Positions 12,440-47,902 of a stretch of 64,000 nucleotides of DNA are shown here, piece after piece. The notes under the pieces are model-generated. The model worked only from the letters and a program-made list of their open reading frames with translations. It searched no databases and had not been told where the DNA came from. The first letter of the stretch is position 1; each line of letters starts with the position of its first letter. Source of the DNA: Candidatus Falkowbacteria bacterium (lineage in GTDB: Bacteria; Patescibacteriota; Patescibacteriia; JAACEG01); the NCBI GenBank assembly GCA_018651725.1, contig JABIDK010000005.1:64064-128063 (forward strand), given 5' to 3'. The translations under genes and the position numbers were made by a program.

Positions 12440-12605
12440 AAATTAAAGACAATTATGAATAGTTTGCTTGCAGAAATAAATAATGAAATCACGCCTGAAC
12501 AGAAAAAAATTTCTGAGGCTATTGATATTAAAAAATCAGAAGAAGAGATAATTTCCGATTTAATAGAAAATGATATTGTTTCTTTTGACCTTAAGGAAAA
12601 AACGG

Positions 12606-20050: not shown

Positions 20051-23000
20051 ATGAAATTTACTCACTTACATACTCATAGCCACTACAGTCTTTTGGATGG
20101 GCTTGTTAAGATCGATGATTTGATTGAGAAGACTAAGGAATATAATATGGACTCGGTTGCTTTGACCGATCATGGGGTTATGTATGGGGCGATTGAGTTT
20201 TATCAGAAGGCCTTAAAAGCTGGAGTAAAACCGATTGTTGGGGTGGAGGCGTATTTGGCAGCTGGTTCAAGATTTGAAAAAACAAGACAAGGGCGTTATC
20301 ATTTGGTTTTATTGGCAAAAAATAAAACAGGTTATGGTAACTTACTTAAGCTTACAAGCTTGGCTCATTTGGAGGGATATTATTATAAGCCTCGGATTGA
20401 TTGGGAGATTTTAGAAAAATACAGTGAGGGATTAGTGGCTTTGTCAGCTTGTATTCAGGGTGAAGTTCCACGAGCTTTTTTAACAAGCGGGCACGATAAA
20501 GCCAAAGAAATAACTAAAAAATATTTAAAGTTGTTTGGCCATGATTTTTATTTAGAGGTGCAAAAACATAATAATGTTGAGGGTCAGGACAAAGCCAATC
20601 AAGGATTAATTCAAATCGGAAAAGAACTTGGAATTCCGATTGTGGCAACCAACGATGCTCATTATCTTGATGTGGAAGATGAGGAGGCTCAAGATGTGCT
20701 TTTATGCTTGCAAACTAAAAAGAAACAAAAAGACACTGATCGAATGAATATGATTGGGATGGACAACTCTTTTAAAAGCACTGAGAAAATGAAAGAGTCT
20801 TTTTATGACTTTAAAGAAGCTGTGAGTAATACCGAAGAAGTAGTCAAAAAATGTAATTTGGAGATAGAACTAGGAAAAATTACATTGCCTAAATTTGAAG
20901 TACCCAAAGAAAAAACAGACAGTGAATATTTAAGAGATCTTTGTAACGAGGGTGCAAAAAAAAGATACCCGGAATATTTTAAGGAAGATGGAGAAAAATT
21001 TGACGATCCCGATAACTTTAAAAAACAAGTTTTAGATAGACTTGATTTTGAGTTTAATGTAATCGATAAAATGGGCTTTGCTTCATATTTTTTGATTGTA
21101 GGTGATTTTGTTAATTGGGCTAAGGAGCAAAAAATTGTAGTTGGGCCGGGAAGAGGATCTGCTGCTGGGAGTTTAGTCGCTTATCTTTTGAGTATTACTA
21201 ACGTTGATCCGTTAAAATACGATTTGATGTTTGAACGATTTTTAAATCCGGATAGAATTTCCATGCCTGATATTGATTTGGACTTTGCCGATACTAGGCG
21301 CGATGAAGTGATTCGTTATGTAGAGAAAAAGTATGGTCGAGACAAAGTAGCGCAAATTATTACTTTCGGAACAATGGCGGCACGGGCAGCAATCCGCGAT
21401 GCTGGTCGGGTGTTGGACTTTGAATATGATTACTGCGACAAGCTCGCCAAGATGATTCCAATGTTCACACCACTTCAAAAAGCTATCGATGAAGTAGGTG
21501 AGTTAAATGCGATTTATAACAATGAAGTCCAGGCTAAGAAAATTTTAGACACAGCTTTAAAGTTGGAGGGAGTAGCCCGCCATGCTTCAACTCATGCCTG
21601 TGCTGTTTTGATCACTAAAGACCCGCTAGACAAAAGTGTCCCGCTTCAATACGCCTCTTCCGGGGACAAAACAATTGTTTCTCAATTTTCAATGAAGCCG
21701 GTTGAAGAGTTGGGACTCCTTAAAATGGATTTTTTAGGACTTCGTAATTTAACGATTATTGAAAACGCTCTTCGGATTATTAAAGGTCTTCGTGACATTG
21801 AAATTAATATCGATAACATTCCGCTTGACGATCAAAAAACTTACGAATTATTTTCCAAGGGCGATACAACAGGTGTATTTCAATTTGAAAGTTCGGGTAT
21901 GAGACGTTATTTGAAACTTTTGCAACCTAGTGTTTTTGAGGACATTATTGCGATGGTGGCGCTTTATCGACCAGGGCCTTTGAACTCCGGGATGATTGAT
22001 GAGTTTATTGACAGAAAACATGGACGCAAGCAGATTGTTTTTAAGCATCAAATTATGGAGAATGCTCTTAAAAATTCTTATGGAGTGATTGTCTATCAAG
22101 AGCAGGTGATGCAACTTTCCAAAGATATGGCTGGCTTTACGGGTGGGCAAGCTGACACGCTTCGAAAAGCAATGGGTAAAAAAATTGCGGCTTTAATGGC
22201 GAAAATGAAAAGTGAATTTATAGAAGGATGTGTAAAAAAAGGTTTGGAAGAAAATTTGGCAAGAGATACATTTCGTGATATGGAAAAATTTGCTGAGTAC
22301 GGATTTAACAGAAGTCATGCTGCTTGCTATGGGTTGATCGGTTATCAAACAGCTTATCTAAAAGCAAATTACCCGGTAGAGTTTATGGCGGCGCTTTTAA
22401 CTGCCAACGAGGGCGATGTTGATAAAGTGGCGATTGATGTGGCTGAATGCCAAAAAATTGGGATAGAAGTTTTACCTCCGGATATTAATGAAAGCTTCGA
22501 ACATTTTACAGTTGTACCGTTAAAAGAAGGGGATGATAAAAAGTTTGGGCAAATTCGCTTTGGACTTTTAACAGTTAAAAATGTTGGAGAAAATATTGTT
22601 ACAGAGATAATTAAAGAAAGAAAAAAGAATGGTAAGTTTTTGAATCTAGGGGATTTTATTTCCAGGATAAAAAGTAAGGATTTTAATAAAAAATCTTTGG
22701 AAAGTTTAATGAAGTGCGGAGCCTTGGATAATATCGGAGACAGAAGTAAACTACTTTTTAACTTGGAAAAGATTTTGGTATTTATCCGTTCCCTCAGAGA
22801 CCAAGAAAAAAGTAAACAAGGTAATTTACTGGGAATGTTATCTGATGATTATAAGCCAACTTTGGAATTAGATGAAATTGAAGAAGGAAAAGAAATTAGC
22901 AAAAAAGAAAAACTAAGCTGGGAAAAAGAATTACTTGGTCTTTATGTTAGTGATCATCCTTTTACAAAATTTCAAGCTGATCTCGCGGATAAAACCGTAT

Positions 23001-23605
23001 CTCTTTTAGAGGCAAACAAGGAAACAGAAAATTTTAAGGAAAAGCAAATTATTATCGCCGGCATTATCTCTAAGATTAAAAAAATAACCACTAAAAAAGG
23101 AGACGCCATGATGTTTGTAACTATTGAAGACACCGCCAGTAATTTAGAGATTTTGGTTTTTCCTAGATTACTTGAAGAAACTAAAGATTTGTGGGAAGAA
23201 GAAAAAATGCTTATCGTAAAAGGAAAATTATCAGACAAGGACGGGGTGCCAAAGTTACTGGCCGAGTCTGTTAAAGAATTAGTTCCAAGTAGAATAGATG
23301 AAACTATATCTGTTTTAAATCAAGCAAGGGATAATAAATCTTATTATAAGAAAAAACAAGAGAATAATAATAATTTTCAAACAAACAATAACAGTAGATT
23401 TATAGATATAAAAATGCCAAAAATAATCAGTAAAGAAAAGCTTGTAAAGTTAAAAGAATTTTTTAGTAAATATTCAGGAGAAACAAAAGTAAGATTTATA
23501 ATTGAAAACGGAGTTGGAGCAAAGATAATTAACACTTCTTTTAATGTTCCGAGTAGTAATCTTGAGGAGATAAAAAGTAAAGTGGATTCTATTATTTTAA
23601 ATTAA
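20051..23605 (+). CDS. dnaE: DNA polymerase III alpha subunit (DnaE)
   Basis: PHP domain start HLHTHSHYSLLDG. Polymerase core motifs (GPGRGSAAGSLVAYLL, DIDLDF) and a C-terminal OB-fold region. 1184 aa. Confidence 0.9.
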   Translation: MKFTHLHTHSHYSLLDGLVKIDDLIEKTKEYNMDSVALTDHGVMYGAIEFYQKALKAGVKPIVGVEAYLAAGSRFEKTRQGRYHLVLLAKNKTGYGNLLKLTSLAHLEGYYYKPRIDWEILEKYSEGLVALSACIQGEVPRAFLTSGHDKAKEITKKYLKLFGHDFYLEVQKHNNVEGQDKANQGLIQIGKELGIPIVATNDAHYLDVEDEEAQDVLLCLQTKKKQKDTDRMNMIGMDNSFKSTEKMKESFYDFKEAVSNTEEVVKKCNLEIELGKITLPKFEVPKEKTDSEYLRDLCNEGAKKRYPEYFKEDGEKFDDPDNFKKQVLDRLDFEFNVIDKMGFASYFLIVGDFVNWAKEQKIVVGPGRGSAAGSLVAYLLSITNVDPLKYDLMFERFLNPDRISMPDIDLDFADTRRDEVIRYVEKKYGRDKVAQIITFGTMAARAAIRDAGRVLDFEYDYCDKLAKMIPMFTPLQKAIDEVGELNAIYNNEVQAKKILDTALKLEGVARHASTHACAVLITKDPLDKSVPLQYASSGDKTIVSQFSMKPVEELGLLKMDFLGLRNLTIIENALRIIKGLRDIEINIDNIPLDDQKTYELFSKGDTTGVFQFESSGMRRYLKLLQPSVFEDIIAMVALYRPGPLNSGMIDEFIDRKHGRKQIVFKHQIMENALKNSYGVIVYQEQVMQLSKDMAGFTGGQADTLRKAMGKKIAALMAKMKSEFIEGCVKKGLEENLARDTFRDMEKFAEYGFNRSHAACYGLIGYQTAYLKANYPVEFMAALLTANEGDVDKVAIDVAECQKIGIEVLPPDINESFEHFTVVPLKEGDDKKFGQIRFGLLTVKNVGENIVTEIIKERKKNGKFLNLGDFISRIKSKDFNKKSLESLMKCGALDNIGDRSKLLFNLEKILVFIRSLRDQEKSKQGNLLGMLSDDYKPTLELDEIEEGKEISKKEKLSWEKELLGLYVSDHPFTKFQADLADKTVSLLEANKETENFKEKQIIIAGIISKIKKITTKKGDAMMFVTIEDTASNLEILVFPRLLEETKDLWEEEKMLIVKGKLSDKDGVPKLLAESVKELVPSRIDETISVLNQARDNKSYYKKKQENNNNFQTNNNSRFIDIKMPKIISKEKLVKLKEFFSKYSGETKVRFIIENGVGAKIINTSFNVPSSNLEEIKSKVDSIILN

Positions 23606-30182: not shown

Positions 30183-31865
<1,683 letters not shown>

Positions 31866-33419: not shown

Positions 33420-34190
33420 ATGTTTGACAAAAATCTCAGAGCTCCAAGCTCTCCAAATCAAAATCCAAATCAAAGTCCGCAACCTCAAGTACCGAATGTT
33501 TCAACAGGAGAACCTAAAAAACCGGTTGAGGATATGTTTTCTCCAACTGATTCTGTGCCTCAAAAGAATATTAATGAGGCGCAAAAACAGGAAAATATTT
33601 CCAATATTTTAAAGCCCGAAACAAGTAATGCTAATGTAAGTCCTGCTAATGCAAGTCAAATTCCACCGAACTTGCCAGCCGCCAAAGTGGGATTGACTCC
33701 AGAAAAGCATAACCCTAAAAACAAAGGAGTATTTTTTGTTTTAGTTATTATTATTTTTTTACTGATTGCTCTTGGCGCTGGTGCTTGGTATTATTTTAAT
33801 TATTTGGCTGTGCCGGATGTTATTGAGGATCAAATTATAGATGAAAAAGAGAACGAGCAAGCAGCACAAGAAAACATTAACATTAATACACCTGTTGTAA
33901 ATGAGAATGTTAATATAAATAAAAATATTAGTCCGACCACGATAATATTTGACTCTGACCTTGATTCCGATGGATTAACAGATGACGAAGAAAAAAAACT
34001 TGGAACAAATATTAATTTAGCTGATAGCGATAACGATGGTCTTTTGGACAGAGAAGAGATAAGAATATATAAAACAAATCCGTTAAATCCGGACACCGAT
34101 GGAGACGGACATAAAGATGGAGATGAAATAAAAGGTGGCTATAACCCGAATGGCCCGGGGAAGTTAGATGTTAAGTCTATGTTTAATTAA
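33420..34190 (+). CDS. Membrane-anchored surface protein with thrombospondin type-3-like Ca-binding repeats
   Basis: Pro/Gln/Asn-rich N-terminus, one TM helix, then DSDLDSDGLTDDEE, DSDNDGLLDREE and DTDGDGHKDGDE repeats. Confidence 0.5.
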   Translation: MFDKNLRAPSSPNQNPNQSPQPQVPNVSTGEPKKPVEDMFSPTDSVPQKNINEAQKQENISNILKPETSNANVSPANASQIPPNLPAAKVGLTPEKHNPKNKGVFFVLVIIIFLLIALGAGAWYYFNYLAVPDVIEDQIIDEKENEQAAQENININTPVVNENVNINKNISPTTIIFDSDLDSDGLTDDEEKKLGTNINLADSDNDGLLDREEIRIYKTNPLNPDTDGDGHKDGDEIKGGYNPNGPGKLDVKSMFN

Positions 34191-34207: not shown

Positions 34208-35245
34208 ATGTTTTTCCATAAAAAAAATAAAAATCAAAAACAGGAAGAAAAAAATCCTAACAAAGGCATAGATATTCATGTAATGCCAAAAAAGTTTTTA
34301 AGAAAAGCTGACGTTAATGACAAAGGCTCAAATGCCGCAGTGTTTGTTTTGATATTTTTAATAGTGCTTGGCGTAGCAGCTTATTTTTTAAGTAACTATA
34401 TTTTTCCAAATGGAGTTTCTTTTTTAAAAAATAATTCTAATAAAGTTGCTGTAAACGATAGTGCAAATAAAAACAGCAATATGCTTGAAAATGAAAATAC
34501 AAATATAAATGAAAACATAAACGATTCAATCTTAAACAGAAATTATAATACAAACACTAACACTAACGCTAATACAAACACTAACACTAATACAAACACT
34601 AACACTAACACTAACGCTAATACAAACACTAACACTAACACTAACGCTAATACAAACACAAGTGTTATTCCTGTTATCCCAATTTCTTCAGACAAAGACT
34701 ATGATACTTTGACTGACATTGAAGAGGCTATTTACAAAACCAATCCAAGTATTTCCGATACAGACAAGGACGGATTTTTGGACGGGCAAGAGCTTGCTAA
34801 TTTATATGATCCGTTGATAGGAGGATCAGTAAGAATAGAAGATTCCAGTCTGATCGATAAATATATTAATCCAACTTATGGTTACTCTATTTTATATCCA
34901 AAAAGTTGGCAGGTAGCTCCTCTTGGCGGTGGAGATCAGGAGATAACTTTTGTTTCTTCTAACAAAGAATTTATTGAGGTGACGGTTATGGATAATTCTG
35001 AGGGACTAACAGCGGTCGGGTGGTATTTAAATCAAATTCCAAAGAGTTCGGGATATAAAGCTGAAAGAGTTTGGGCAAATAATTTTATGGGTATAAAAAG
35101 TCTAGACGGAATGCATGTTTATTTAACTCCAATCTCTGGAAAAAGGAATTTTATTTACACAATTTCTTATATGGTTGGAAGTCACGCCTATATCAGTTAT
35201 CCAGCAACTTTCCAAATGATGATAAGAAGTTTCGATGCCATATGA
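34208..35245 (+). CDS. Membrane-anchored protein with an (Asn-Thr)n low-complexity tract, a TSP3-like repeat and a C-terminal globular domain
   Basis: TM helix. NTNTNTNANTNT... encoded by a hexanucleotide tandem repeat. DKDYDTLTDIEE and DTDKDGFLDGQE motifs. Confidence 0.5.
   Translation: MFFHKKNKNQKQEEKNPNKGIDIHVMPKKFLRKADVNDKGSNAAVFVLIFLIVLGVAAYFLSNYIFPNGVSFLKNNSNKVAVNDSANKNSNMLENENTNINENINDSILNRNYNTNTNTNANTNTNTNTNTNTNTNANTNTNTNTNANTNTSVIPVIPISSDKDYDTLTDIEEAIYKTNPSISDTDKDGFLDGQELANLYDPLIGGSVRIEDSSLIDKYINPTYGYSILYPKSWQVAPLGGGDQEITFVSSNKEFIEVTVMDNSEGLTAVGWYLNQIPKSSGYKAERVWANNFMGIKSLDGMHVYLTPISGKRNFIYTISYMVGSHAYISYPATFQMMIRSFDAI
34548..34670 (+). repeat. In-frame hexanucleotide tandem repeat (AACACT/AATACA/AACGCT units) encoding the (NT)n tract
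   Basis: About 20 consecutive 6-nt units with minor variation, inside CDS 34208-35245. Confidence 0.8.
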
Positions 35246-35660: not shown

Positions 35661-36026
35661 ATGTTTTTTAATTTTAAAAGAGCTACAAAAAGTTTTGTTT
35701 ACGCCTTTCGTGGCCTTAGATCTGTTTGGAAAAAAGAACAAAATTTTCGATTTCACAGTGTTGCGGCTATTTTAATTTTGATTTTAGCTGTTTTTTTAAA
35801 ACTTGAAAAAACAGACTTTGCAATTATTCTCTTACTAATTGGTGTAGTTTTAATTTTAGAGCTTGTTAACACCGTCTTTGAAAGATTAATCGATATTTTA
35901 AAGCCCCGCATCCACGAATACTCTAAAGAAATAAAAAACATTTCCTCAGCCATAGTCTTAACCGCAGCCATCTTTAGCGTTATAATAGGAACAATCATTT
36001 TCCTACCATATATATGCCACCTTTAA
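35661..36026 (+). CDS. dgkA: Diacylglycerol kinase / undecaprenol kinase (DgkA family)
   Basis: Three TM helices and LILELVNTVFERLIDIL (DgkA signature E-L-x-N-T/S-A/V-I/F-E). Confidence 0.7.
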   Translation: MFFNFKRATKSFVYAFRGLRSVWKKEQNFRFHSVAAILILILAVFLKLEKTDFAIILLLIGVVLILELVNTVFERLIDILKPRIHEYSKEIKNISSAIVLTAAIFSVIIGTIIFLPYICHL

Positions 36027-36451
36027 ACAATCAAAAAAGAATCACCTTCATCTTAATAATACTAATTCTCCTAGTTATAATCAGCGTTACCACGCTTATT
36101 TTTTTTAACCAAAAAGACATTAAAAAAGAAAAAAGTCTTATCTCTGATATTAAAACAGCAGAAACCCCTTTATCTTTTTTAAACAACGAAGAATCAGAGC
36201 CAGACTCTGACCAAGATGGTCTGACCGATAAAGATGAAAAAGAAATCTACAAAACCGATCCCAACAAAAAAGATACCGACAACGATGGTTTATCTGATTC
36301 ACAGGAGATCGTTACCTATCAGACAAACCCTTTAAATAAAGATACCGACAACGATGGTTTTAGAGACAAAGAAGAAATTGAAAGAAACCTTAACCCCAAT
36401 GGAGAAGGTGACAGCAAGAAAGGATATATTCTTCCCTTTGGAAATAAATAG
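36014..36451 (+). CDS. Membrane-anchored TSP3-like repeat protein
   Basis: TM helix, then DSDQDGLTDKDE, DTDNDGLSDSQE and DTDNDGFRDKEE repeats. Confidence 0.5.
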   Translation: MPPLNNQKRITFILIILILLVIISVTTLIFFNQKDIKKEKSLISDIKTAETPLSFLNNEESEPDSDQDGLTDKDEKEIYKTDPNKKDTDNDGLSDSQEIVTYQTNPLNKDTDNDGFRDKEEIERNLNPNGEGDSKKGYILPFGNK

Positions 36452-36464
36452 TAATATCAATATT

Positions 36465-39400
36465 ATGCGTAAACTCTATTTAATCTTAATTGCCTTACTT
36501 TTTTTGCCTTTTATTGCATCTGCCGATACTCCGGTAGTTAATAATTTTGAATTACTGGATAATACCAGCGGTGCAAGCGTCTCTAGTCCAATCCGAGGCA
36601 ATGTTGTCAGATTACACGTTACAGCAACCGATCCGGATGGCATTAAATATGTTCGAGCAATTGTTCTAGATCCCGGAGGAACTCAAAAATCCCTGATCAT
36701 TTTACACAACGACGGCGATAGCGCTCACGGGGATTTTAGTGCTAGCGATGATATATATTCCTCTCTCTGGCTGACCTCCTATTCTCTGTCCTCAGGAGTT
36801 AACTATACTATAGTTATTAAAATAATGGATAACTTAGGTAATATCTACAGCTCTAGCGATGGATCTTTTGATATCACAGAAAGCTGCGATTTTGGCTCAA
36901 CCTGCAATAATATTAATGAATTAAGATGTAATAACGGCATAATCGAAAGATGCACAGCTCAAGCTACCTGCAATTATTGGGCGCTTGATGAAAATTGTCC
37001 GGGAGTAAATGTTTGTTGCGGAAGCGGGGTTAGCTCTACCTGCTGCGGTCTGGGACAGATTTGCTCCAGTAACGATAACTGTCTTACCTGCGGTATTACC
37101 TGCGATAACGTCTGTCTTGATTCCAAGTGCGTTAACGATCCGGACTGTCAGCCCGGAGGCTGTTGCGGAGATAACACCTGCGATATTGATATTAACGAGT
37201 GCTCAAACTGTAGTAATGACTGTAATCTAACCGATTGTTGTGGAAATCAAGTTTGCAATAGCGCAGTTGGAGAGGACTTTAATACTTGCCCCGGAGACTG
37301 TCCATGTATCGACAGCGATGGAGACGGACAAATCTCAACTGTTTGCGGAGGCGATGATTGTGACGATAGTAATGACGATAGATTTTTAGGAAATCAAGAG
37401 GTCTGCGATGGAGTAGATAACGATTGTAATGCTTCAACAACCGATGAAGATCTTTGCGATAGCGACCACGACAACTATTGCAACTGTGATGAACCTTTTA
37501 AAATAGGCTCTAATTTAAACGCTATTTGCAACACAAACACAACTAACGGTTTTCATTGGAGTCAAACTTGCGATTGTGATGATAATAATTCAAACATCAA
37601 CCCCGGAGTAACGGAAAACTGCACCAGCCCGGAAGACGATGACTGCGATGGACAGGTAAACGATCTTGATATAGACTGCGGCGGAACAGGCACCCCAGCC
37701 AGCCCAATCTTAACTGTTTCTCCTTCACCGGCCGTTGATGGTGATTTTGTAACCTACACAATGTCTGCCACTGGCTTAATTACTCATTATGAATTTTATT
37801 CTTGCGAAGGAGCAAGTTGCGTTCCAATAGATAGCACTACTTTAGAGACAAGCAGTAACTCTTATTCGCAAAGCGGAACAATAGCAGGCCCAGCAGTTTG
37901 GAACTTCCAACTTCAAGCCTGCAACGATAACGGATGCTCAAACGCAACCAATGTTCAAACATTCATAATTAATCCTCAAACCGTTCCAAACAATGTTTCT
38001 CTGACCGTTACGCCCGATACTGTTAACATTAATGAAAGCGTTACTTACTCCTGGTCCGCCGATGGAAACATCGATAACTACGGACTGCAGTTTAAATACA
38101 ACGACCAACCCTGGTCCAGTTTTATTAACTATGGATTAACCACCTCTATAACCGAAGTTTCCGATATGGCCGGAGATTTTCAAATAAGAGCCAGAGCCTG
38201 TAATGGTCATGGTTGTGGCTATAGTACCGTCAGAACTTTAACGGTAAATGCCGAAGGCGAAGAATTACCCTCTAATGTAAACTTTAATATCTCCCCAAAT
38301 ACCGTAGTTACCGGAGACAACGTTACTTATTCTTGGTCGGCCATTGATGCAGAGAGCTTTGAATATGTCTCCAGATTTAACTCCGGCACTTGGGGAACTT
38401 GGTCTACTCTAAGTAACATTGGCGATCCCGGATCTTTAACAAATCCAGCCGGAACTCCCGGAATTTACGAATACATATTAAGAGCCTGTAATAGCTTTGG
38501 TTGCAGTGAAGATAACATTCAAACCTTAACAGTAAACAACGCCAGTGTAGTTGCTCCAACTAATCCAGCTATCACAATTAACCCAGCTATAACAGAGGTA
38601 ATGGAGAACATCTCCTTTACCTTAGGGGCTAACGGAACAGTTGATTATTATGAATTTTATTCTTGTGAGGGAGCAGGCTGCACACCAGTAGATATGGTTA
38701 ACTTTAATGTTGCTCAAAACCCATATTCATTTAATGCCACTCAAGTAAACCCCGGGACATTTCGCTATATGGTTAATGCCTGCAACATAATCGGATGCTC
38801 AGGCAATAGTAATATTGAAGATTTAGTTATTTACCCAAGCGGAACCTGCGATACCGATAACGACACTTATCTTGAAGATATCTGTGGTGGTAACGATTGT
38901 GATGATGACGACGATGAAATGTTTCCAGGCAATCCAGAGATCTGTGATGGGAAGGATAACGATTGCAACGATCAAACTAACGATGGCTGTAACTGTGTTA
39001 ACGGAACAACTCAACCCTGCGGAACAGATGTTGGATTATGCGAAGCAGGAGAACAAACTTGTATCGTAGGAGAATGGGGAACATGTCTTAACCAAGTAGG
39101 ACCAACCGCAGAAATCTGTGACAACGAAGACAACAACTGTAACACCCAAACCGACGAAGGCTTAACTGTAATTTGTAATAACAATAGTAACTGTAACGAC
39201 AGCAATGACTGCACAGTAGATACCTGTAATAACCCGGGAAGTTGTTTCTCAAGTTGCTCTAATGACCAAGTTACAAGTTGCCAAGATAGCGATGGTTGTT
39301 GTCCAAATGGTTGTAACTTTAGTAACGATAACGACTGTGCTCCAGGTTGTACCCCGGACGGCTGTAACAACAACTGCCCAGTAAACTGTAGCGGTGCAGA

Positions 39401-41780
39401 CGACCCGGATTGTTCAGGAACTTGTCTTGATTGCTCTTGTTCAACCGATACTGATTGTGGAAGTACCTGCGCACAAGGCGATGGATGTTGCGTAAGCTGT
39501 AGTAGCCCAATAGATTTGGACTGTGATATGCAGGATCCAAACGTCAACACCTTCAACGCCGTTGAAAACAACGATAACGCCGATATCTCCTGGACAGTAA
39601 CCGATCAAGGTGGCTCTCAACTAGACTACATTGCAATCTGGCGCGCTCCATACAATGCCTCTAACTGTCACGAAACAAACAAGAGTGGTTGTGTGTGGAG
39701 TCAAATTCAAACGATAAATATCTCCGGAGACAGCCAGACCGGTTCCCATACCGATAGCCCTGGCAACGGATCTTGGTGGTACGGTATGCATGTTTACGAC
39801 AATGCTGGTAACTGGAGCCAGGAACCAACTCCACCGGGAGTATTAAATGTAGAGATAGCTCCAGCGTGCACACCTAGCCTTGACTGTAGCGACTATCCAG
39901 GAAACTGTAATGTTAATCTTTTTGATGGCTGTGATAATATTCTAAATTGTTCTAATAACTGTTCGGGTGGAGAGAGTTGTTGCTCTGGCAGCTGTCAAGC
40001 TCCTACCTGCTCTAACAATAGCGACTGCGACGATAGCAATAACTGTACAACAGATACTTGCAATAACCCGGGAGGTTGTTCAGCTAGTTGTTCTAATAGT
40101 CCGTCTTCTAAAGCGAATGGTGAGGCTTGTAGTGTTGATTGTGAGTGTGCGAGTGGAGTGTGTACTAATAATATTTGTGTTAATGGAGTTAATAAAACTA
40201 TCGTTTACAGAGCCCTATCTTCTCATAATGGTAACTTCGGAGGTAGATCCGGTCTTGACTCTTATTGCGCTAACAACAAACCGGCTAATTTACCTGGGAA
40301 TGTCTCAAATATTCACGCTTTTATTTCTGTTTCTGATACCGACGAGCTTAGAGATATGCCTAATAATTACGGCTATGATTCTAACGTTAGTCTTTATTGG
40401 TTTAAAAGTAGTAACACGACTTTTAATAAATTTGCAGATAATTGGGCGGATATGTTAGATGGTAGCATTCAATTAAGTAGAAGTGACGGAGGAGATAGTG
40501 GTAGCGCTTGGTCGGGAAGTAAGCCCGACGGATCAGTAGAACAATATAACGGTGTAACAGTAAATTGTGATCAGTGGATTTCTGATGCTTATGATGGCAA
40601 TTGTAATCAGGATAAAGATCATTCGTCTGTGTTTGGATCTAATTATACAACTAGCTATGTAGCTGATGGAAGTTATTGGCAAGGATGGATTTATGGATCT
40701 GTTTATATTAGTTATCCTTCAGGATGTATGAGATGCTCTAATTCTGCTTATTTGTTGTGTGCAGGAGAGATGAATGCGTCGTGTACACCTAGCCTTAATT
40801 GTAGCGACTATCCTGGAAACTGCGGTATTAATCTTTTTGATGGCTGTGATAATATTCTAAATTGTTCTAATAACTGTTCGGGCGGAGAAGTTTGTTGCTC
40901 CGACAGCTGTCAAGCTCCTGCCTGCTCTAACAATAGCGAATGCAACGACAGTGATAACTGTACAACAGATACCTGCAATAACCCGGGAAGTTGTTCAGCA
41001 AGTTGTTCTAATACTCAAGCAAGTTGCCAAGATGGTGATGGTTGTTGTCCAAGTGGTTGTGATTCTGGCAACGATAATGATTGCCTTTTTATTCCTGATA
41101 CCTTTACTTGGCGAGACTATAATGGCAGTGATTGGATGAGTCCAATGAGATATCAAGCTATGTGTGGATCTTGTTGGGCGTTTGCTACAATGGGGGTTGC
41201 CGAAGGAAAATACAATATACAAGAAAACAACCCAGCCTTAGACGTTGACCTTTCTGAACAATATGTAACCTCTGATTGTTGTAGTGCCGGAACCTGTAAT
41301 GGTGGCGGCCATTCATTTAATTGCGATACAACAGATGAGTCTTGTTATCCTTATATACCGGGACAAGATCTTGATAGTCTTAGTAGTTGTAGTGGAAGAT
41401 GTGCTGATTGGAGTACCAGAGTATGGGATATGTCTGATTACTCAGTTGCTCCAAATGCCTATACTGCAATTTCAGATCCAGATGCCATAAAAACGTTACT
41501 TATGAACGAAGGACCGGTTTGGGCTGCAATGGGTGATGCTAGCTCTAGTAGTTTTGTTTATAGTCCTGCTGATCAAGCTTGGATATGTACAAACGATGAT
41601 TCACGCGCTCAAGATTTAAATCACGCAATTGTTTTAGTTGGTTGGGATGATAATATTGGTTGCTGGTGGTTTAAAAATAGCTGGGGAATGGGTTGGGGAG
41701 ACGGAGGTTATGGTTGTATAAAATATGGAGAGTGTCTTTTAGAAGCTGATTATTATTTAAATAGTGTTATTTCACCTTAA
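36465..41780 (+). CDS. Giant secreted Cys-rich multi-domain protein (about 1771 aa) with MopE-like metal-binding repeats, four Ig/FN3-like repeats, triplicated Cys-rich modules and a C-terminal papain-like (C1) cysteine peptidase domain
   Basis: Signal peptide MRKLYLILIALLFLPFIASA (the track start at 36354 is an upstream in-frame extension). MopE-like CGGDDCDDSNDDRFLGNQEVCDGVDNDCN occurs twice. Four about 95-aa repeats end in C-N-x-x-G-C. C-terminal C1 peptidase motifs are QAMCGSCWAFAT (Cys), NHAIVLVGWDD (His) and WWFKNSWGMGWGDGGY (Asn). Confidence 0.8.
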   Translation: MRKLYLILIALLFLPFIASADTPVVNNFELLDNTSGASVSSPIRGNVVRLHVTATDPDGIKYVRAIVLDPGGTQKSLIILHNDGDSAHGDFSASDDIYSSLWLTSYSLSSGVNYTIVIKIMDNLGNIYSSSDGSFDITESCDFGSTCNNINELRCNNGIIERCTAQATCNYWALDENCPGVNVCCGSGVSSTCCGLGQICSSNDNCLTCGITCDNVCLDSKCVNDPDCQPGGCCGDNTCDIDINECSNCSNDCNLTDCCGNQVCNSAVGEDFNTCPGDCPCIDSDGDGQISTVCGGDDCDDSNDDRFLGNQEVCDGVDNDCNASTTDEDLCDSDHDNYCNCDEPFKIGSNLNAICNTNTTNGFHWSQTCDCDDNNSNINPGVTENCTSPEDDDCDGQVNDLDIDCGGTGTPASPILTVSPSPAVDGDFVTYTMSATGLITHYEFYSCEGASCVPIDSTTLETSSNSYSQSGTIAGPAVWNFQLQACNDNGCSNATNVQTFIINPQTVPNNVSLTVTPDTVNINESVTYSWSADGNIDNYGLQFKYNDQPWSSFINYGLTTSITEVSDMAGDFQIRARACNGHGCGYSTVRTLTVNAEGEELPSNVNFNISPNTVVTGDNVTYSWSAIDAESFEYVSRFNSGTWGTWSTLSNIGDPGSLTNPAGTPGIYEYILRACNSFGCSEDNIQTLTVNNASVVAPTNPAITINPAITEVMENISFTLGANGTVDYYEFYSCEGAGCTPVDMVNFNVAQNPYSFNATQVNPGTFRYMVNACNIIGCSGNSNIEDLVIYPSGTCDTDNDTYLEDICGGNDCDDDDDEMFPGNPEICDGKDNDCNDQTNDGCNCVNGTTQPCGTDVGLCEAGEQTCIVGEWGTCLNQVGPTAEICDNEDNNCNTQTDEGLTVICNNNSNCNDSNDCTVDTCNNPGSCFSSCSNDQVTSCQDSDGCCPNGCNFSNDNDCAPGCTPDGCNNNCPVNCSGADDPDCSGTCLDCSCSTDTDCGSTCAQGDGCCVSCSSPIDLDCDMQDPNVNTFNAVENNDNADISWTVTDQGGSQLDYIAIWRAPYNASNCHETNKSGCVWSQIQTINISGDSQTGSHTDSPGNGSWWYGMHVYDNAGNWSQEPTPPGVLNVEIAPACTPSLDCSDYPGNCNVNLFDGCDNILNCSNNCSGGESCCSGSCQAPTCSNNSDCDDSNNCTTDTCNNPGGCSASCSNSPSSKANGEACSVDCECASGVCTNNICVNGVNKTIVYRALSSHNGNFGGRSGLDSYCANNKPANLPGNVSNIHAFISVSDTDELRDMPNNYGYDSNVSLYWFKSSNTTFNKFADNWADMLDGSIQLSRSDGGDSGSAWSGSKPDGSVEQYNGVTVNCDQWISDAYDGNCNQDKDHSSVFGSNYTTSYVADGSYWQGWIYGSVYISYPSGCMRCSNSAYLLCAGEMNASCTPSLNCSDYPGNCGINLFDGCDNILNCSNNCSGGEVCCSDSCQAPACSNNSECNDSDNCTTDTCNNPGSCSASCSNTQASCQDGDGCCPSGCDSGNDNDCLFIPDTFTWRDYNGSDWMSPMRYQAMCGSCWAFATMGVAEGKYNIQENNPALDVDLSEQYVTSDCCSAGTCNGGGHSFNCDTTDESCYPYIPGQDLDSLSSCSGRCADWSTRVWDMSDYSVAPNAYTAISDPDAIKTLLMNEGPVWAAMGDASSSSFVYSPADQAWICTNDDSRAQDLNHAIVLVGWDDNIGCWWFKNSWGMGWGDGGYGCIKYGECLLEADYYLNSVISP
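39843..40098 (+). repeat. Intragenic direct repeat unit 1 (about 90 percent identical to 40781-41010), encoding the Cys-rich module CTPSLDCSDYPGNCNVNLFDGCDNILNCSNNCSGGE.CCS.SCQAP.CSNNS.C.DS.NCTTDTCNNPG.CSASCSN
   Basis: DNA-level repeat inside the giant gene. A third, more diverged copy lies at about 39170-39340. Confidence 0.8.
40781..41010 (+). repeat. Intragenic direct repeat unit 2
   Basis: Matches 39843-40098 over about 230 bp with few substitutions. Confidence 0.8.
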
Positions 41781-41801: not shown

Positions 41802-42404
41802 ATGAAAAAAGCCATTTTATTTTTTATTTTTATGTTATCACCATTGAGTATTTTTGCTCAAGAATCCATGGTGCATATAATCCCGCCACCAAATCCATCG
41901 GCAGCTTATTGTGAAGAATTGGGTTATAAAATTACTATTAAAAAAACTCCGGAAGGAGAGCTTGGTATTTGTAATTTTTCAGATACAGAGCAAGCTCCAG
42001 CTTGGAGTTTTTTACGAGGCGAAGAGGCTCAAGAGCATAGTTATTGTGCTAAAGTTGGCTATGAAATGAAATTAATAGATGATCCTGCAAAATGTGGAGC
42101 TACTTATAAACCTGGTCATGGATGTTTAGCTTGCATACTTGAGGACGGTAGCGAAGTAGAGGCTGGAAATCTTTTAAAGATAGAAAAAGCCAGAAGATTA
42201 ACTAATCCTTGTAACAATGACGGAAAATGTCTTACCCCTGAAACTCCTCAAAACTGTCCTCAAGATTGCACAGTCGCTAAACAAGAAATCCCTAAAGATA
42301 ATGCCAAAAATATAGTCCTCGCTATCATGGCTATTAGTGGTATAATTGTTATAATATTAACCTCATATTATTTTTTAAGAAAAAAGGAAAATAACGATAT
42401 TTAG
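41802..42404 (+). CDS. Secreted protein with two tandem DUF333-like (putative haemolysin/YoaF-like) Cys domains and a C-terminal TM anchor
   Basis: Signal peptide. NPSAAYCEELGY...GICNF...WSFLRGE and AQEHSYCAKVGY...GHGCLACILEDGSEVEAG resemble the DUF333 pattern NPAS.YC...GG...G.C...dG.e.W. Confidence 0.5.
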   Translation: MKKAILFFIFMLSPLSIFAQESMVHIIPPPNPSAAYCEELGYKITIKKTPEGELGICNFSDTEQAPAWSFLRGEEAQEHSYCAKVGYEMKLIDDPAKCGATYKPGHGCLACILEDGSEVEAGNLLKIEKARRLTNPCNNDGKCLTPETPQNCPQDCTVAKQEIPKDNAKNIVLAIMAISGIIVIILTSYYFLRKKENNDI

Positions 42405-45730: not shown

Positions 45731-47902
45731 ATGGTTATCAAAACTCAAACTAAAGAAAAAATTACTCAAATTCTAAAAAGAGACGGAGTTATCGCTGACT
45801 TTAACACAGCCAAAATCACTAGCGCTATTTTAAAGTCCTTGGAAGAAACTAAAGAAGTGGAAAATTCAAATGAAGTTGCCGAAGAGCTTGCAAAAGAAGC
45901 TATTAATATTTTACACTCCAAGTTTCATGTTCGTTCTATTCCGGCGGTGGAAGAAGTTCAAGATATTGTTGAAGAAGCTTTAATTAAATCAAGACTCATT
46001 AGAACAGCTAAAGCTTATATTTTATACCGTGACCAAAGAGCAAAGTTGCGAGACGTAGAAGACCTTATTGATTCCGGTGAACTTATGGAGAAATATTTAG
46101 AGCAATTGGACTGGCGAGTAAAGGAAAACAGTAATATGAGTTATTCGCTGCAAGGGCTTAACAATCATGTAGCTTCAACTATTTCAGCAAAATATTGGTT
46201 AAACAAAGTTTACCCTCAGCAAATCGGAAATGCTCATGTTGAGGGTGATATTCACATTCATGATCTTCAGCTTTTGGCTCCCTACTGTGCCGGCTGGGAT
46301 TTAAAGGATCTTTTAATGAGAGGTTTCGGCGGAGTTAACGGTAAAGTTGAAGCCAAACCACCAAAGCATTTTCGAACCGCTCTTGGACAAATGGTTAATT
46401 TCTTTTACACTCTTCAGGGTGAGGTTGCAGGAGCTGAAGCATTTTCTAACTTTGATACTTATTTAGCGCCTTTTGTCAGGTACGATAAATTAAACTATAA
46501 AGAAACAAAGCAGGCCTTACAGGAGTTTTTATTTAATGTTAATGTTCCGACTCGAGTTGGTTTTCAAACACCATTTACAAATATCACAATGGATATGTTT
46601 GTTCCAAACATGATTAAAGATGAAAGTGTTATTATCGGTGGTAAACCACAGAACGAAAAATACGGTGAGTTCCAAGAAGAAATGGATATGATCAATAAAG
46701 CTTTTGCCGAGCTAATGATGGAAGGAGACGCGACTGGAAGAGTGTTTACTTTTCCGATTCCAACTTATAATATTACTAAGGATTTTGATTGGGACAGTGA
46801 AGTAATGGAAAAAGTTTTTGAAATGACCGCTAAATACGGAATTCCTTATTTTTCTAACTTTATTAATTCAGATATGAGCCCGGAAGATGCTCGGTCTATG
46901 TGTTGCAGATTACGTTTGGACAATAGAGAGCTGCGAAAAAGAGGCGGAGGACTTTTTGGAGCCAACCCTTTAACCGGATCGATCGGAGTGGTAACTATTA
47001 ATTTACCGAGAATAGGATATCTGGCTAAGAAAAAATATCCTGAGGATATTGAAAAAGCAAAAGAATATTTCTATAAACGTTTAGGCAAGTTTATGGACTT
47101 GTCCAAAGAAAGCTTGGAGATTAAAAGGGAAATTATTGAAAAATTAACTGACGGCGGTCTTTATCCTTACGCTAGACACTATCTGGACGGCATTAAGAAA
47201 AAATTTGATAAATACTGGCAAAATCACTTTGCAACTATTGGTATAAACGGAATGAACGAAGCTATGGTAAATATTCTAGGCAAGAATATCGCTTCAAAAC
47301 AAGGGCAAAAATTAGCGATCGAGGTAATGGATTTTATGAGAGATAAAATGGGAAAATACCAAGATGAAACTAACAATCTTTATAACTTGGAGGCCACTCC
47401 GGCTGAGGGAGTTACCAGAAGATTTGCCAACGTTGATAAAAAGAAATTTAAAGACATAATTGTAGCTAATGAAAAAGAGGTTAATGAAAAAGGCGCTTCT
47501 CCTTACTATACCAACTCTTCTCATTTACCGGTAGATTATTCAGATGATATCTTTGAAGTTTTGGATCTGCAAGACGAGCTGCAAACCAAATACACCGGCG
47601 GAACAGTTGTTCATGGATTTATCGGTGAAAGAATGCCATCGGTTGAGGCCACAAAAAATATGGTTAGAAAAATTGCCGAAAATTATAAACTGCCATATTA
47701 CACAATTACTCCAACTTTTAGTGTTTGTCCAACTCACGGTTACATCACAGGCGAAAAGCCAAAGTGTCCTGATTGTGATGCGGAAACAGAAGTTTACTCC
47801 AGAGTAGTTGGATACCTACGCCCAGTAAAACAATGGAACGACGCTAAACAATCCGAGTTTGAAAAACGCTTGGAATATGCAGCCGACGGCTGCGGATGCT
47901 AA
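45731..47902 (+). CDS. nrdD: Anaerobic ribonucleoside-triphosphate reductase (class III, NrdD)
   Basis: N-terminal ATP-cone. C-terminal Zn-ribbon CPTHGY...CPDC and glycyl-radical motif RVVGYLRPV. Confidence 0.9.
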   Translation: MVIKTQTKEKITQILKRDGVIADFNTAKITSAILKSLEETKEVENSNEVAEELAKEAINILHSKFHVRSIPAVEEVQDIVEEALIKSRLIRTAKAYILYRDQRAKLRDVEDLIDSGELMEKYLEQLDWRVKENSNMSYSLQGLNNHVASTISAKYWLNKVYPQQIGNAHVEGDIHIHDLQLLAPYCAGWDLKDLLMRGFGGVNGKVEAKPPKHFRTALGQMVNFFYTLQGEVAGAEAFSNFDTYLAPFVRYDKLNYKETKQALQEFLFNVNVPTRVGFQTPFTNITMDMFVPNMIKDESVIIGGKPQNEKYGEFQEEMDMINKAFAELMMEGDATGRVFTFPIPTYNITKDFDWDSEVMEKVFEMTAKYGIPYFSNFINSDMSPEDARSMCCRLRLDNRELRKRGGGLFGANPLTGSIGVVTINLPRIGYLAKKKYPEDIEKAKEYFYKRLGKFMDLSKESLEIKREIIEKLTDGGLYPYARHYLDGIKKKFDKYWQNHFATIGINGMNEAMVNILGKNIASKQGQKLAIEVMDFMRDKMGKYQDETNNLYNLEATPAEGVTRRFANVDKKKFKDIIVANEKEVNEKGASPYYTNSSHLPVDYSDDIFEVLDLQDELQTKYTGGTVVHGFIGERMPSVEATKNMVRKIAENYKLPYYTITPTFSVCPTHGYITGEKPKCPDCDAETEVYSRVVGYLRPVKQWNDAKQSEFEKRLEYAADGCGC

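Follow-up and report, generated by a model that had tools for sequence, protein, structure and literature searches.

The Locus and the Encoded Protein

The analysed window is a 64,000-nt stretch of DNA from Candidatus Falkowbacteria, a CPR bacterium with a tiny genome. At positions 36465–41780, an open reading frame encodes a protein of exactly 1771 aa, identical to the NCBI entry MBT4277456.1 and in agreement with the approximate length given in a preliminary description of this DNA. It is a genuine protein-coding gene. All features discussed below lie on the forward (+) strand, and coordinates refer to the window. The protein is extremely acidic, with 237 Asp and Glu residues vs. 42 Lys and Arg residues, and contains 153 Cys residues (8.6%), which are predicted to form disulfides after export. 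Residues 1–20 (36465..36524), MRKLYLILIALLFLPFIASA followed by D, read as a Sec signal peptide, as had been proposed earlier; the segment displays n-h-c organisation and an ASA/D site, begins at the start codon used by NCBI and is the sole hydrophobic segment of the protein. A scan of the whole protein for an anchor of its own detected neither a C-terminal transmembrane helix nor an LPXTG-like motif. Thus, the protein may simply be released, and the term “surface-displayed”, applied to it previously, goes too far.

Large Cys-rich extracellular proteins of CPR bacteria were described in Peregrinibacteria, and a role in attachment has been proposed for them (PMC4736985). According to the same source, members of this class carry a signal peptide, exceed 1,000 aa, contain 7–9% Cys and Myxococcus/MopE-type repeats, and are encoded in small, symbiont-like genomes; the present protein shares all of these properties, its length and Cys content lying beyond the limits used there (>1,000 aa, ~7% Cys). 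The described proteins mostly lack a functional prediction, and the passages on them mention no protease domain, whereas the 1771-aa protein ends in a recognised enzyme and is followed by a conserved gene for a candidate partner. Since multidomain bacterial C1 peptidases are also known, the protein adds one member to established groups. No NCBIfam model matches the full-length sequence or its Cys-rich segments.

The repetitive organisation of the gene had raised the concern of mis-assembly. However, four members of the protein's cluster, drawn from JGI, ENA and NCBI assemblies, are equal in length and differ by 0–1 aa. Mis-assembly is therefore unlikely.

The N-Terminal Head and Its Relatives

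The mature N-terminus begins with an Ig-like domain devoid of Cys (aa 21–140, 36525..36884), which contains DPDGIKYVRAIV and is collinear with the corresponding regions of the related proteins P0002–4 and P0016 at 39–47% identity. Pfam reported no match for it. This domain had been overlooked in the preliminary description. It is followed by a Cys-rich region (aa 141–289, 36885..37331) with 29 Cys residues, which includes CCGNxxCxxxxGExxxxCxxDC motifs and has a Cys pattern that is unchanged across four family members; neither Pfam nor NCBIfam returned a match. The third element is a first region of MopE-type putative metal-binding repeats (aa 290–409, 37332..37691), recognised by PF11617 in two stretches with an E-value of 5.4e-10 and 39.8 bits against a cut-off of 27. 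As a whole, the head is collinear among relatives, with 47–54% identity.

A profile search with the head retrieved ~15 proteins, in which it always occupies the N-terminus. The tails joined to it are C1 peptidases, the β-propellers Vgb_lyase/SGL and RCC1, or regions of unknown type, and the head is best read as a shared platform with differing tails. A scan of genome contigs with a 405-aa head alignment, keyed on the generic MopE motifs CGGDDCDD and CDGIDNDC, yielded 80 MopE proteins, of Myxococcota and further phyla, none of which belongs to the family. With a MopE-free version of the head, a scan of metagenome contigs returned nothing beyond the contig already carrying P0003. Together with the shuffled Cys-rich cassettes described below, this shared head with alternative tails illustrates how surface proteins diversify in small genomes.

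The Stalk

The head is succeeded by four Ig-like repeats (aa 410–505, 506–597, 598–697 and 698–793; 37692..38843). These match one another in Self-BLAST (E-values from 2e-24 to 1e-6), and each closes with the motif AC[NS]xxGC[SG] (at aa 485, 578, 674 and 772), in line with the four Ig-type repeats of ~95 aa reported earlier. When the segment was excised, Pfam assigned ChitinaseA_N (E 1.2e-8, 35.2 bits vs. a cut-off of 21.2) and PKD (E 2.3e-5, 24.7 bits vs. 23.5); on the whole protein, PKD scored 17 bits and thus fell under its threshold. A second MopE-type region (aa 794–902, 38844..39170) was not detected by Pfam and is recognised by its similarity to aa 283–400 (E 7e-20) and by the motif CDGKDNDC at aa 827, the counterpart of the CDGxDNDC motif at aa 314. 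Both MopE-like repeats of the preliminary description were thereby recovered, the first by Pfam and the second by internal similarity and motif.

The remainder of the stalk is punctuated by Cys-rich cassettes built from three modules: A (47 aa, two copies), the core B (30 aa, three copies) and C (20 aa, two copies). These modules occur in the order B+C, A+B and A+B+C. Copy 1 (39171..39344; B1, aa 904–933, and module C1, aa 938–957; repeat families D2 and D3) has 72.7% aa identity to aa 1487–1540 and precedes a Cys-rich linker (aa 961–1021, 39345..39527) with weak internal similarity to the other cassettes. Copy 2 (39864..40109; A2, aa 1134–1180, and B2, aa 1182–1211) constitutes repeat family D1, and copy 3 (A3+B3+C3, aa 1438–1541, 40776..41087), delimited by internal repeat comparison, adjoins the protease domain directly. 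Of the three ~75-aa copies that had been described, therefore, the tripled portion is the 30-aa core B, and the rest is a mosaic in which A and C occur twice each. The core (CxDxxNCTxDxC) may resemble the CTDC repeat of Dictyostelium, a family that Pfam did not report on segments of the protein.

Between copies 2 and 3, an 82-aa unit is duplicated (copy 2 vs. aa 1439–1520, 82.9% aa identity). At the DNA level, the repeat (39851–40101 vs. 40766–41016) is 88% identical, close to the ~90% first noticed for 39843–40098 and 40781–41010; in the codon-aligned comparison of 39864–40109 with 40779–41024, nucleotide identity is 87.4%, with dN 0.097, dS 0.329 and dN/dS 0.30. Values of this size argue that the duplication is not very recent and indicate an older event under purifying selection. 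In addition, the B+C cassette of copy 3 has 84.5% aa identity to aa 593–663 of P0010, a different giant Falkowbacteria protein, and is found in P0276 too; the cassette is a shared, shuffled module and does not reflect an intragenic event alone. The recent duplication or gene conversion postulated earlier was thus overstated.

Internal repeats with 78–91% nucleotide identity are also what might be expected if the gene were a collapsed-repeat artefact, an explanation that, together with its variant of a pseudo-protease serving as a mere scaffold, appears highly improbable. B1 has just 78–80% nucleotide identity to B2 and B3 (80% to B3), the C modules have 83%, and copies diverged by at least 12% can be assembled unambiguously; a dN/dS of 0.30 across the repeat and the agreement of the independent assemblies likewise count against an artefact.

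Two further domains are interspersed between the cassettes. An FN3-like module (aa 1022–1133, 39528..39863) has 36–44% identity to modules in P0002, P0016 and P0024 and to three copies in P0010; it has no Pfam match and is called FN3-like from a reading of its residues. It had gone unmentioned previously. The second domain (aa 1244–1437, 40194..40775), formerly left unassigned at ~200 aa, is a putative, sub-threshold DUF1554, an adhesion-type domain: PF07588 aligns over profile positions 3–128 of 136 with an E-value of 1.1e-5 and 25.7 bits, just below the cut-off of 27.5, and three of five aligned relatives match the same profile as well (E up to 0.1). The AlphaFold2 (AF2) model of this domain is half-confident, with a mean pLDDT of 57 and values <50 for residues 91–185. 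In a Foldseek search with this model, the top five PDB matches were all endostatin, which has a C-type-lectin-like fold (E 7e-3 to 0.2, TM ~0.4), followed by noise.

DUF1554 is the domain of the Len adhesins of Leptospira (PMC2387172), for which endostatin was likewise reported as the template. Len is a small lipoprotein, whereas the domain here forms part of a multidomain protein; it also includes a long insertion that is poorly modelled, and its score stays below the Pfam gathering threshold. The Ig/PKD repeats and this putative Len/endostatin-like domain give the scaffold modules of adhesion type, in keeping with the adhesin-like character previously ascribed to it.

Such adhesion-type modules are the main reason to consider a device for host attack and adhesion, in which the protein would be held at the surface, bind a host via its Ig and Len-like modules and use the protease to remodel or breach the host envelope. 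The attachment role proposed for large Cys-rich CPR exoproteins (PMC4736985) would fit such a device, as would a membrane-anchored partner able to tether the protease. However, the protein lacks its own anchor, the targets of Len are animal extracellular matrix and no bacterial surface, and host-directed and general proteolysis are indistinguishable from these data; hence, this explanation is possible but doubtful. The host-cell interaction envisaged in the preliminary description was drawn from lifestyle only.

The C-Terminal C1A Peptidase

The protein ends in a C1A papain-like peptidase (aa 1542–1771 plus the stop codon, 41088..41780). PF00112 covers aa 1543–1760 with an E-value of 1.4e-28 and 101 bits against a cut-off of 20.7, spanning profile positions 1–213 of 220. 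The catalytic residues Cys1570, His1720 and Asn1738 are intact, as are Gln1564 of the oxyanion hole and Trp1740, so the domain bears out the complete C1 domain reported earlier, including the hallmarks whose loss would have spoken against it. The same residues are kept in P0002–4, in four short homologues and in an alignment with cathepsin C. They correspond to Gln19, Cys25, His159, Asn175 and Trp177 (papain numbering) of papain, cathepsins L, K, S and C, and cruzain, which likewise have the two-lobed fold. Among PDB sequences, 138 match the domain, with all of the 60 listed being C1A enzymes, and the best match is cathepsin C (E 1.7e-21). AF2 modelled the catalytic domain with a pLDDT >90, and Foldseek placed the model with a probability of 1.00 and target-normalised TM scores of 0.75–0.79 against cathepsin K, cathepsin V and cruzain. 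The domain therefore has the papain fold, and the peptidase is complete and, judging from its residues, apparently active.

Several features set it apart from known C1A enzymes. In comparison with papain, the domain has 13 Cys instead of seven and lacks ~6 residues following the conserved L-domain GG. The exclusion domain of cathepsin C is absent. In contrast to typical C1A enzymes, it has no detectable I29 propeptide and terminates a scaffold of 1,540 aa. Neither PF08246 (I29) nor any other propeptide was matched in the whole protein at E-values up to 1, none was found in the 120 aa before the catalytic domain at E-values up to 10, and a search of the short C1 relatives for I29 was equally negative. 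These 120 aa are unrelated among family members. The AF2 model has a pLDDT <50 in the last Cys-rich cassette and is uninformative on its docking onto the protease, so this adjoining segment may conceivably have a prodomain-like role.

Dead C1 domains are known in some MopE proteins, such as P0082, in which the catalytic Cys is replaced. These precedents are what a pseudo-protease could appeal to, but the catalytic residues are kept in every member of the present family.

The nearest C1 domains, at up to 40% identity, belong to ordinary short secreted prokaryotic C1 peptidases. This relationship, combined with the intact active site and the lack of an anchor, is consistent with a nutritional exoprotease, released or loosely held, that would digest environmental or detrital protein into peptides and amino acids for import by an auxotrophic CPR cell, its repeats providing stability and substrate binding. 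CPR bacteria lack most amino-acid biosynthesis, and a dependence on proteases and on peptides from outside the cell has been inferred for them (PMC4736985, PMC6851277). Against this, a binding scaffold of 1,540 residues and a conserved, dedicated membrane partner represent a heavy investment for bulk digestion, and the family is rare. As with host attack, a purely nutritional role can be entertained only tentatively.

The Downstream DUF333 Gene

Directly downstream, at 41802..42404, lies a gene for a 200-aa type-I membrane protein, which the preliminary description had also passed over. PF03891 (DUF333) matches it in two stretches with an E-value of 6.6e-17, and the two DUF333 domains of the protein are accompanied by a signal peptide, a small Cys motif and, at the C-terminus, a transmembrane helix (aa 166–193). 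The two genes are co-oriented and separated by 21 nt, in which a terminator scan found no terminator-like site; promoter and terminator scans were otherwise at or near background. Co-transcription of the protease and DUF333 genes is probable.

The pairing is conserved. A DUF333 gene immediately follows the protease gene in six of six distinct loci that combine the head with a C1 tail, vs. neither of the two loci in which the same head carries another tail. Upstream, these loci show two contexts, ybeY-dagK and ftsA-T4SS_pilin. The CPR lineages that carry the six loci are related, and every locus is close to ftsA; some of the linkage could thus be due to gene order kept by descent. From its position, the DUF333 protein may be the protease's partner, acting as inhibitor or anchor. 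Because the protease has no anchor of its own, tethering, if any, must come from a partner such as this one. No better candidate is at hand for a cognate partner at the surface, one that would tether the protease, restrain it or do both.

A parallel is provided by short C1 peptidases, in which a small gene is also located directly downstream. For a related short C1 peptidase, the gene at this position encodes an inhibitor of the chagasin family I42 (ICP), and I42 is fused to other short C1 peptidases. In the present case, however, the downstream gene encodes a DUF333 membrane protein and the protease carries a giant N-terminal scaffold. The possibility that DUF333 is a divergent chagasin was ruled out, as hhalign gave a probability of 0.14% between the DUF333 partners and an I42 protein. 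Sequence and profile searches of the PDB for DUF333 returned no solved relative, and a literature search produced only false or uninformative matches, such as DUF3335 and DUF3338.

The occurrence of one head with different tails, the restriction of DUF333 to the C1 tail, the I42 precedent and the failure to detect a prodomain could be combined into a polymorphic exoenzyme or toxin-immunity system. There, the head would serve as a delivery or display platform, the tail as an exchangeable effector and DUF333 as a cognate inhibitor shielding the producer's surface, functionally replacing both chagasin/I42 and the missing prodomain. This explanation, including the replacement it supposes, is improbable: DUF333 has no detectable resemblance to known protease inhibitors, the loci are few and phylogenetically non-independent, and the β-propellers among the non-C1 tails would be atypical toxins. 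A related but still unlikely conjecture, to which slightly greater weight may be given, regards DUF333 as the outer part of a membrane-anchored protein dedicated to secreted C1 peptidases that lack a prodomain. It would represent their surface receptor or a new, chagasin-unrelated class of cysteine-protease inhibitor, and the head would be a CPR-specific display platform for anti-host effectors.

The gene neighbourhood also bears on a possible role in envelope biogenesis. Cwp84 of Clostridioides difficile is a surface C1A protease that is, like the present protein, fused to non-catalytic surface-association modules. By analogy, the peptidase might process surface or pilus proteins of its own cell into their mature form while the envelope grows or divides, given its conserved position beside ftsA/ftsZ and, in loci L087–L089, directly after a T4SS_pilin gene. 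Such a function is quite improbable, however. The neighbourhood is its whole basis, and a maturation protease needs no scaffold this large. In Cwp84, the protease is N-terminal and is combined with a propeptide, a lectin-like domain and cell-wall-binding repeats of the CWB2 type; Pfam found no propeptide, lectin-like domain, CWB2 or S-layer-binding repeats in the 1771-aa protein.

Proposed Function

Taken together, the protein is probably a modular exoprotein that joins the conserved head, a shuffled stalk and a competent C1A peptidase for extracellular proteolysis on or close to the cell, with the DUF333 protein as its candidate partner. Its first section would be the conserved head of Ig-like domain, Cys-rich region and MopE-type putative metal-binding repeats; the second, the stalk, whose shuffled modules are specific to the lineage (four Ig/PKD-like repeats, the second MopE-type region, the FN3-like module, the putative DUF1554 binding domain and the Cys-rich cassettes); and the third, the C1A endopeptidase, predicted to be catalytically competent without an I29-type prodomain. 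Proteolysis would most likely occur outside the cell, at or near its surface, with host or environmental proteins as targets. Binding could be supplied by the Ig and Len-like modules, while the DUF333 membrane protein would tether the protease, restrain it or both.

CPR bacteria (Patescibacteria) are thought to live attached to hosts, from which they would obtain their amino acids. Few of their surface effectors are known to have an activity that can be recognised; with its identifiable and apparently active protease on an adhesin-like scaffold, the present protein thus lends itself to biochemical work. Its strict pairing with the DUF333 membrane protein is the lead of greatest use. If DUF333 were to bind or inhibit the protease, a first function would be assigned to this widespread but uncharacterised domain, and the restraint of a papain-like enzyme that lacks a prodomain would be explained.

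Base Composition of the Gene

The GC content rises in the gene (0.42 vs. ~0.33). The excess resides at codon position 2 and therefore reflects the amino-acid composition of the protein. Horizontal acquisition of the gene was considered and largely rejected in view of this excess and of the native-like GC3 of the protease domain. Deviant GC3 is confined to the FN3-like module, which at 0.49 has the highest value in the gene.

The giant gene and its assembly

The giant protein is encoded by a single open reading frame on the + strand (36465-41780, 1771 aa), as the preliminary description had stated, and is identical to NCBI MBT4277456.1, titled "hypothetical protein [Candidatus Falkowbacteria bacterium]". 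Public databases already list it under an automatic C1A annotation, its JGI name being "C1A family cysteine protease". Longer ORF starts are available at two upstream ATGs (36354 or 36399) that overlap the preceding gene. Start-codon annotations differ across 36354-36464: JGI and ENA give 1793 aa from ATG 36399, overlapping the upstream gene, and NCBI starts at ATG 36465, so that its protein begins with the signal peptide. The FtsA, FtsZ and DUF333 proteins encoded beside the giant gene also bear the Candidatus Falkowbacteria name; thus, the window comes from a CPR/Patescibacteria genome, whose GC content is low. Mis-assembly had been named as a possible objection. However, four sequences from the 90% cluster of this protein (JGI, ENA and NCBI assemblies) are of equal length with 0-1 aa differences, and the internal repeat copies show 12% or more DNA divergence; therefore, collapse of the repeat region is unlikely.

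Domain architecture

The protein is rich in Cys (153 residues, 8.6%) and strongly acidic (237 D+E vs 42 K+R). Its sole hydrophobic segment, the N-terminal MRKLYLILIALLFLPFIASA|D, matches the signal peptide proposed earlier and is predicted to act as such; a scan for an anchor of its own found neither an LPXTG motif nor a TM segment at the C-terminus. The head comprises an Ig-like domain without Cys or Pfam match (aa 21-140) and a Cys-rich region (aa 141-289). MopE-type repeats (aa 290-409), four Ig-type repeats (aa 410-793) and a second MopE-type region (aa 794-902) follow. The four Ig-like repeats had been recognized previously; each ends in AC[NS]xxGC, with matches to ChitinaseA_N (E 1.2e-8) and PKD (E 2.3e-5). 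Of the two MopE-like regions, the first is matched by PF11617 (E 5.4e-10), whereas the second is identified by internal similarity only (E 7e-20). An FN3-like module (aa 1022-1133), overlooked in the preliminary description, a DUF1554-like domain (aa 1244-1437) and the C1 peptidase domain (aa 1542-1771) lie further downstream. The FN3-like module recurs in P0002, P0016 and P0024, and P0010 carries three copies of it. Its coding sequence (39528-39863) has a GC3 of 0.49, vs 0.24-0.40 elsewhere in this gene and 0.18-0.33 in the genes around it; the module may be a recently exchanged cassette.

The segment at aa 1244-1437 had been called unassigned. It matches DUF1554 (PF07588) at 25.7 bits, just under the threshold of 27.5 (E 1.1e-5), over profile positions 3-128 of 136, and three of five aligned relatives match DUF1554 as well. 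This domain is that of the "endostatin-like" Len lipoproteins of Leptospira, whose ligands are extracellular matrix and factor H and for which endostatin (1koe) served as the fold template (PMC2387172). For a half-confident AF2 model of the segment, the top five PDB matches were all endostatin (E 7e-3 to 0.2), 1koe among them, followed by noise. On account of the sub-threshold profile match, these endostatin matches and the Len study, the segment is read as a putative Len-like binding module.

Three copies of a Cys-rich module of about 75 aa had also been claimed, but the region is a mosaic of three units. Unit A (47 aa) occurs at aa 1134-1180 and 1439-1485 (89% nt identity); unit B (30 aa) at aa 904-933, 1182-1211 and 1487-1516 (B2/B3 91%, B1/B3 80%, B1/B2 78%); and unit C (20 aa) at aa 938-957 and 1520-1539 (83%), giving the N- to C-terminal order B+C / A+B / A+B+C. 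The A+B duplicate had been attributed to recent duplication or gene conversion. Over its 82 codons (39864-40109 vs 40779-41024), an identity of 87.4% at the nucleotide level, a dN of 0.097 and a dS of 0.329 (ratio 0.30) instead indicate an older duplication under purifying selection, neither very recent nor undergoing homogenisation. Since the B+C cassette recurs at 84.5% aa identity in P0010, which is a Falkowbacteria protein of 2471 aa carrying BD-FAE/α-β-hydrolase, Fib_succ_major and FG-GAP domains, and also in P0276, the cassettes are building blocks common to several exoproteins.

A shared head with differing tails

Both ends of the giant protein were found together only in P0002 (1854 aa), P0003 (1525 aa) and P0004 (1305 aa), whose heads are collinear with and 47-54% identical to its own, whose C-termini carry a C1 domain, and whose middles are dissimilar. 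A MopE-free head profile searched against 1.84 billion representatives gave 187 matches at E <=1e-3 and 13 at E <=1e-30, with the whole head at the N-terminus of about 15 proteins. In some the tail is a C1 peptidase, as it also is in two shorter proteins, P0276 (803 aa) and P0290 (630 aa); P0255 and P0016 have Vgb_lyase/SGL β-propellers and P0267 has RCC1 repeats, while others show nothing recognisable. Because the tails vary, the head is a common platform and the protease one of several tails.

The C1 peptidase domain

PF00112 matches aa 1543-1760 (Pfam, 101 bits, cut-off 20.7). Among solved structures, the best sequence match is cathepsin C (E 1.7e-21), followed by cathepsins K, S and L and parasite C1A enzymes. 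In an alignment including relatives, with papain as reference, papain Gln19/Cys25/His159/Asn175/Trp177 correspond to Gln1564/Cys1570/His1720/Asn1738/Trp1740, all of which are kept. The complete domain claimed earlier is thereby borne out, with its catalytic Cys, His and Asn intact and the oxyanion Gln and other hallmarks, singled out there for checking, in place. An AF2 model built on 83 sequences has pLDDT >90 across the catalytic domain and, by Foldseek, resembles cathepsins and cruzain (TM 0.75-0.79, normalised by target). By sequence and model, the catalytic domain is a bona fide family C1 member with an intact active site.

No I29-type propeptide was detected in profile searches of the giant protein and its relatives' upstream segments. 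The 120 residues preceding the catalytic domain differ among family members and are mutually unrelated. In the giant protein they are Cys-rich cassettes (pLDDT <50 for the one adjoining the protease), P0002-4 have Cys-rich sequence of another kind, and in P0276 and P0290 Ig-type sequence (PKD or Big_2) predominates. P0290 (L089 1164-3056) keeps the catalytic Cys but reads CGSCAAF (Trp26 to Ala). In P0082, an N-terminal C1-like domain with the catalytic Cys replaced (…CQADFAF…) precedes a long MopE array; this protein is probably a pseudo-protease.

Pairing with a DUF333 gene

The window gene order is ybeY-dagK-[protease]-DUF333-ftsA-ftsZ-nrdR-nrdD. Loci L001 and L004 share it, L005, on a shorter contig, keeps the protease-DUF333 pair, and L087-L089 read ftsA-T4SS_pilin-[protease]-DUF333. 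The DUF333 gene lies directly downstream at all six distinct head+C1 loci (gaps of 18-169 nt; 21 nt in the window, where a terminator scan found no terminator-like site). Downstream of the two head proteins with other tails stand a TSP3-repeat protein gene and ParB, respectively (6/6 vs 0/2; naive Fisher's exact test on loci that are not phylogenetically independent, p = 1/28). Besides a signal peptide, the DUF333 protein (41802-42404) contains two DUF333 domains (E 6.6e-17) and a small Cys motif, and its C-terminal TM segment bears a basic tail; its L088 counterpart ends in an LPXTG-type anchor.

A chagasin-family I42 inhibitor occupies the same downstream position beside the related short C1 peptidase P0138 (L092 5030-5449), and I42 is fused to the C1 peptidase in P0151, P0159, P0198, P0207 and P0235. 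An hhalign comparison revealed no similarity between DUF333 and I42 (probability 0.14%), PDB sequence and profile searches found no solved relative of DUF333, and a literature search on it returned nothing informative. From its position, the DUF333 protein may be a protease partner, either inhibitor or anchor.

Large Cys-rich secreted proteins have been described in CPR (PMC4736985), and many of the matches are multidomain C1 peptidases of prokaryotes that carry PKD or Big_2 modules. Neither the head-platform family nor its strict DUF333 pairing is described in the literature that could be searched. The pairing offers a modest lead, open to testing; that prodomain-less C1 peptidases on a CPR effector-display platform have in DUF333 a cognate inhibitor or receptor of a new class seems improbable.

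Proposed function and further observations

The protein would be exported via Sec with removal of its signal peptide, and its Cys-rich, metal-binding stalk would fold oxidatively outside the cell. The Ig and Len-like modules, judging from their families, may bind a target, and the C1A endopeptidase, given its intact active site and modelled papain fold, is predicted to cut extracellular proteins. The DUF333 membrane protein, conserved beside it, might tether or restrain the protease. Targets may be host surface proteins, attachment being supported for CPR in general (PMC4736985); bulk environmental protein as an amino-acid supply, scavenging being likewise supported for CPR in general (PMC4736985, PMC6851277); or the cell's own surface proteins.

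A C-x(2-3)-G-x-C-x(3-6)-GE-x(4)-CP-x-DC motif lies within the juxtamembrane linker in four of six DUF333 partners (42217-42279, aa ~139-159 in the window) and recurs in the giant protein's Cys-rich head (37230-37298, aa ~256-278). T4SS_pilin (TrbC/VirB2-like) genes lie directly upstream of the shorter head+C1 genes (L087 1881-2543, L088 1308-1970, L089 489-1139). Small membrane proteins with an N-terminal TM and bacterial TSP3 (Ca-binding) repeats adjoin head-family genes (window 36014-36451 and 33420-34190; L093 9093-9692); one such gene stops 14 nt before the giant gene starts, and another lies directly downstream of NHL/SGL-tailed P0016. Two genes upstream of P0016 is a 999-aa Peptidase_S8 (subtilisin) gene (L093 1063-4062), from the same sample (ERZ23499380) as P0002. 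In the P0003 loci (L001 12621-12989, L002 9073-9441), a 23S_rRNA_IVP-family gene separates ftsA from ftsZ; the window has none at this place. The window also encodes a 345-aa ORF with an N-terminal TM, a long Asn-Thr (NTNTNA...) low-complexity run and a weak, sub-threshold Pfam match (34208-35245), and an 802-aa AAA_13/SMC_N-type ATPase (12570-14978); its other large ORFs are housekeeping genes (DnaE 20051-23605, GroEL 30183-31865, NrdD 45731-47902).
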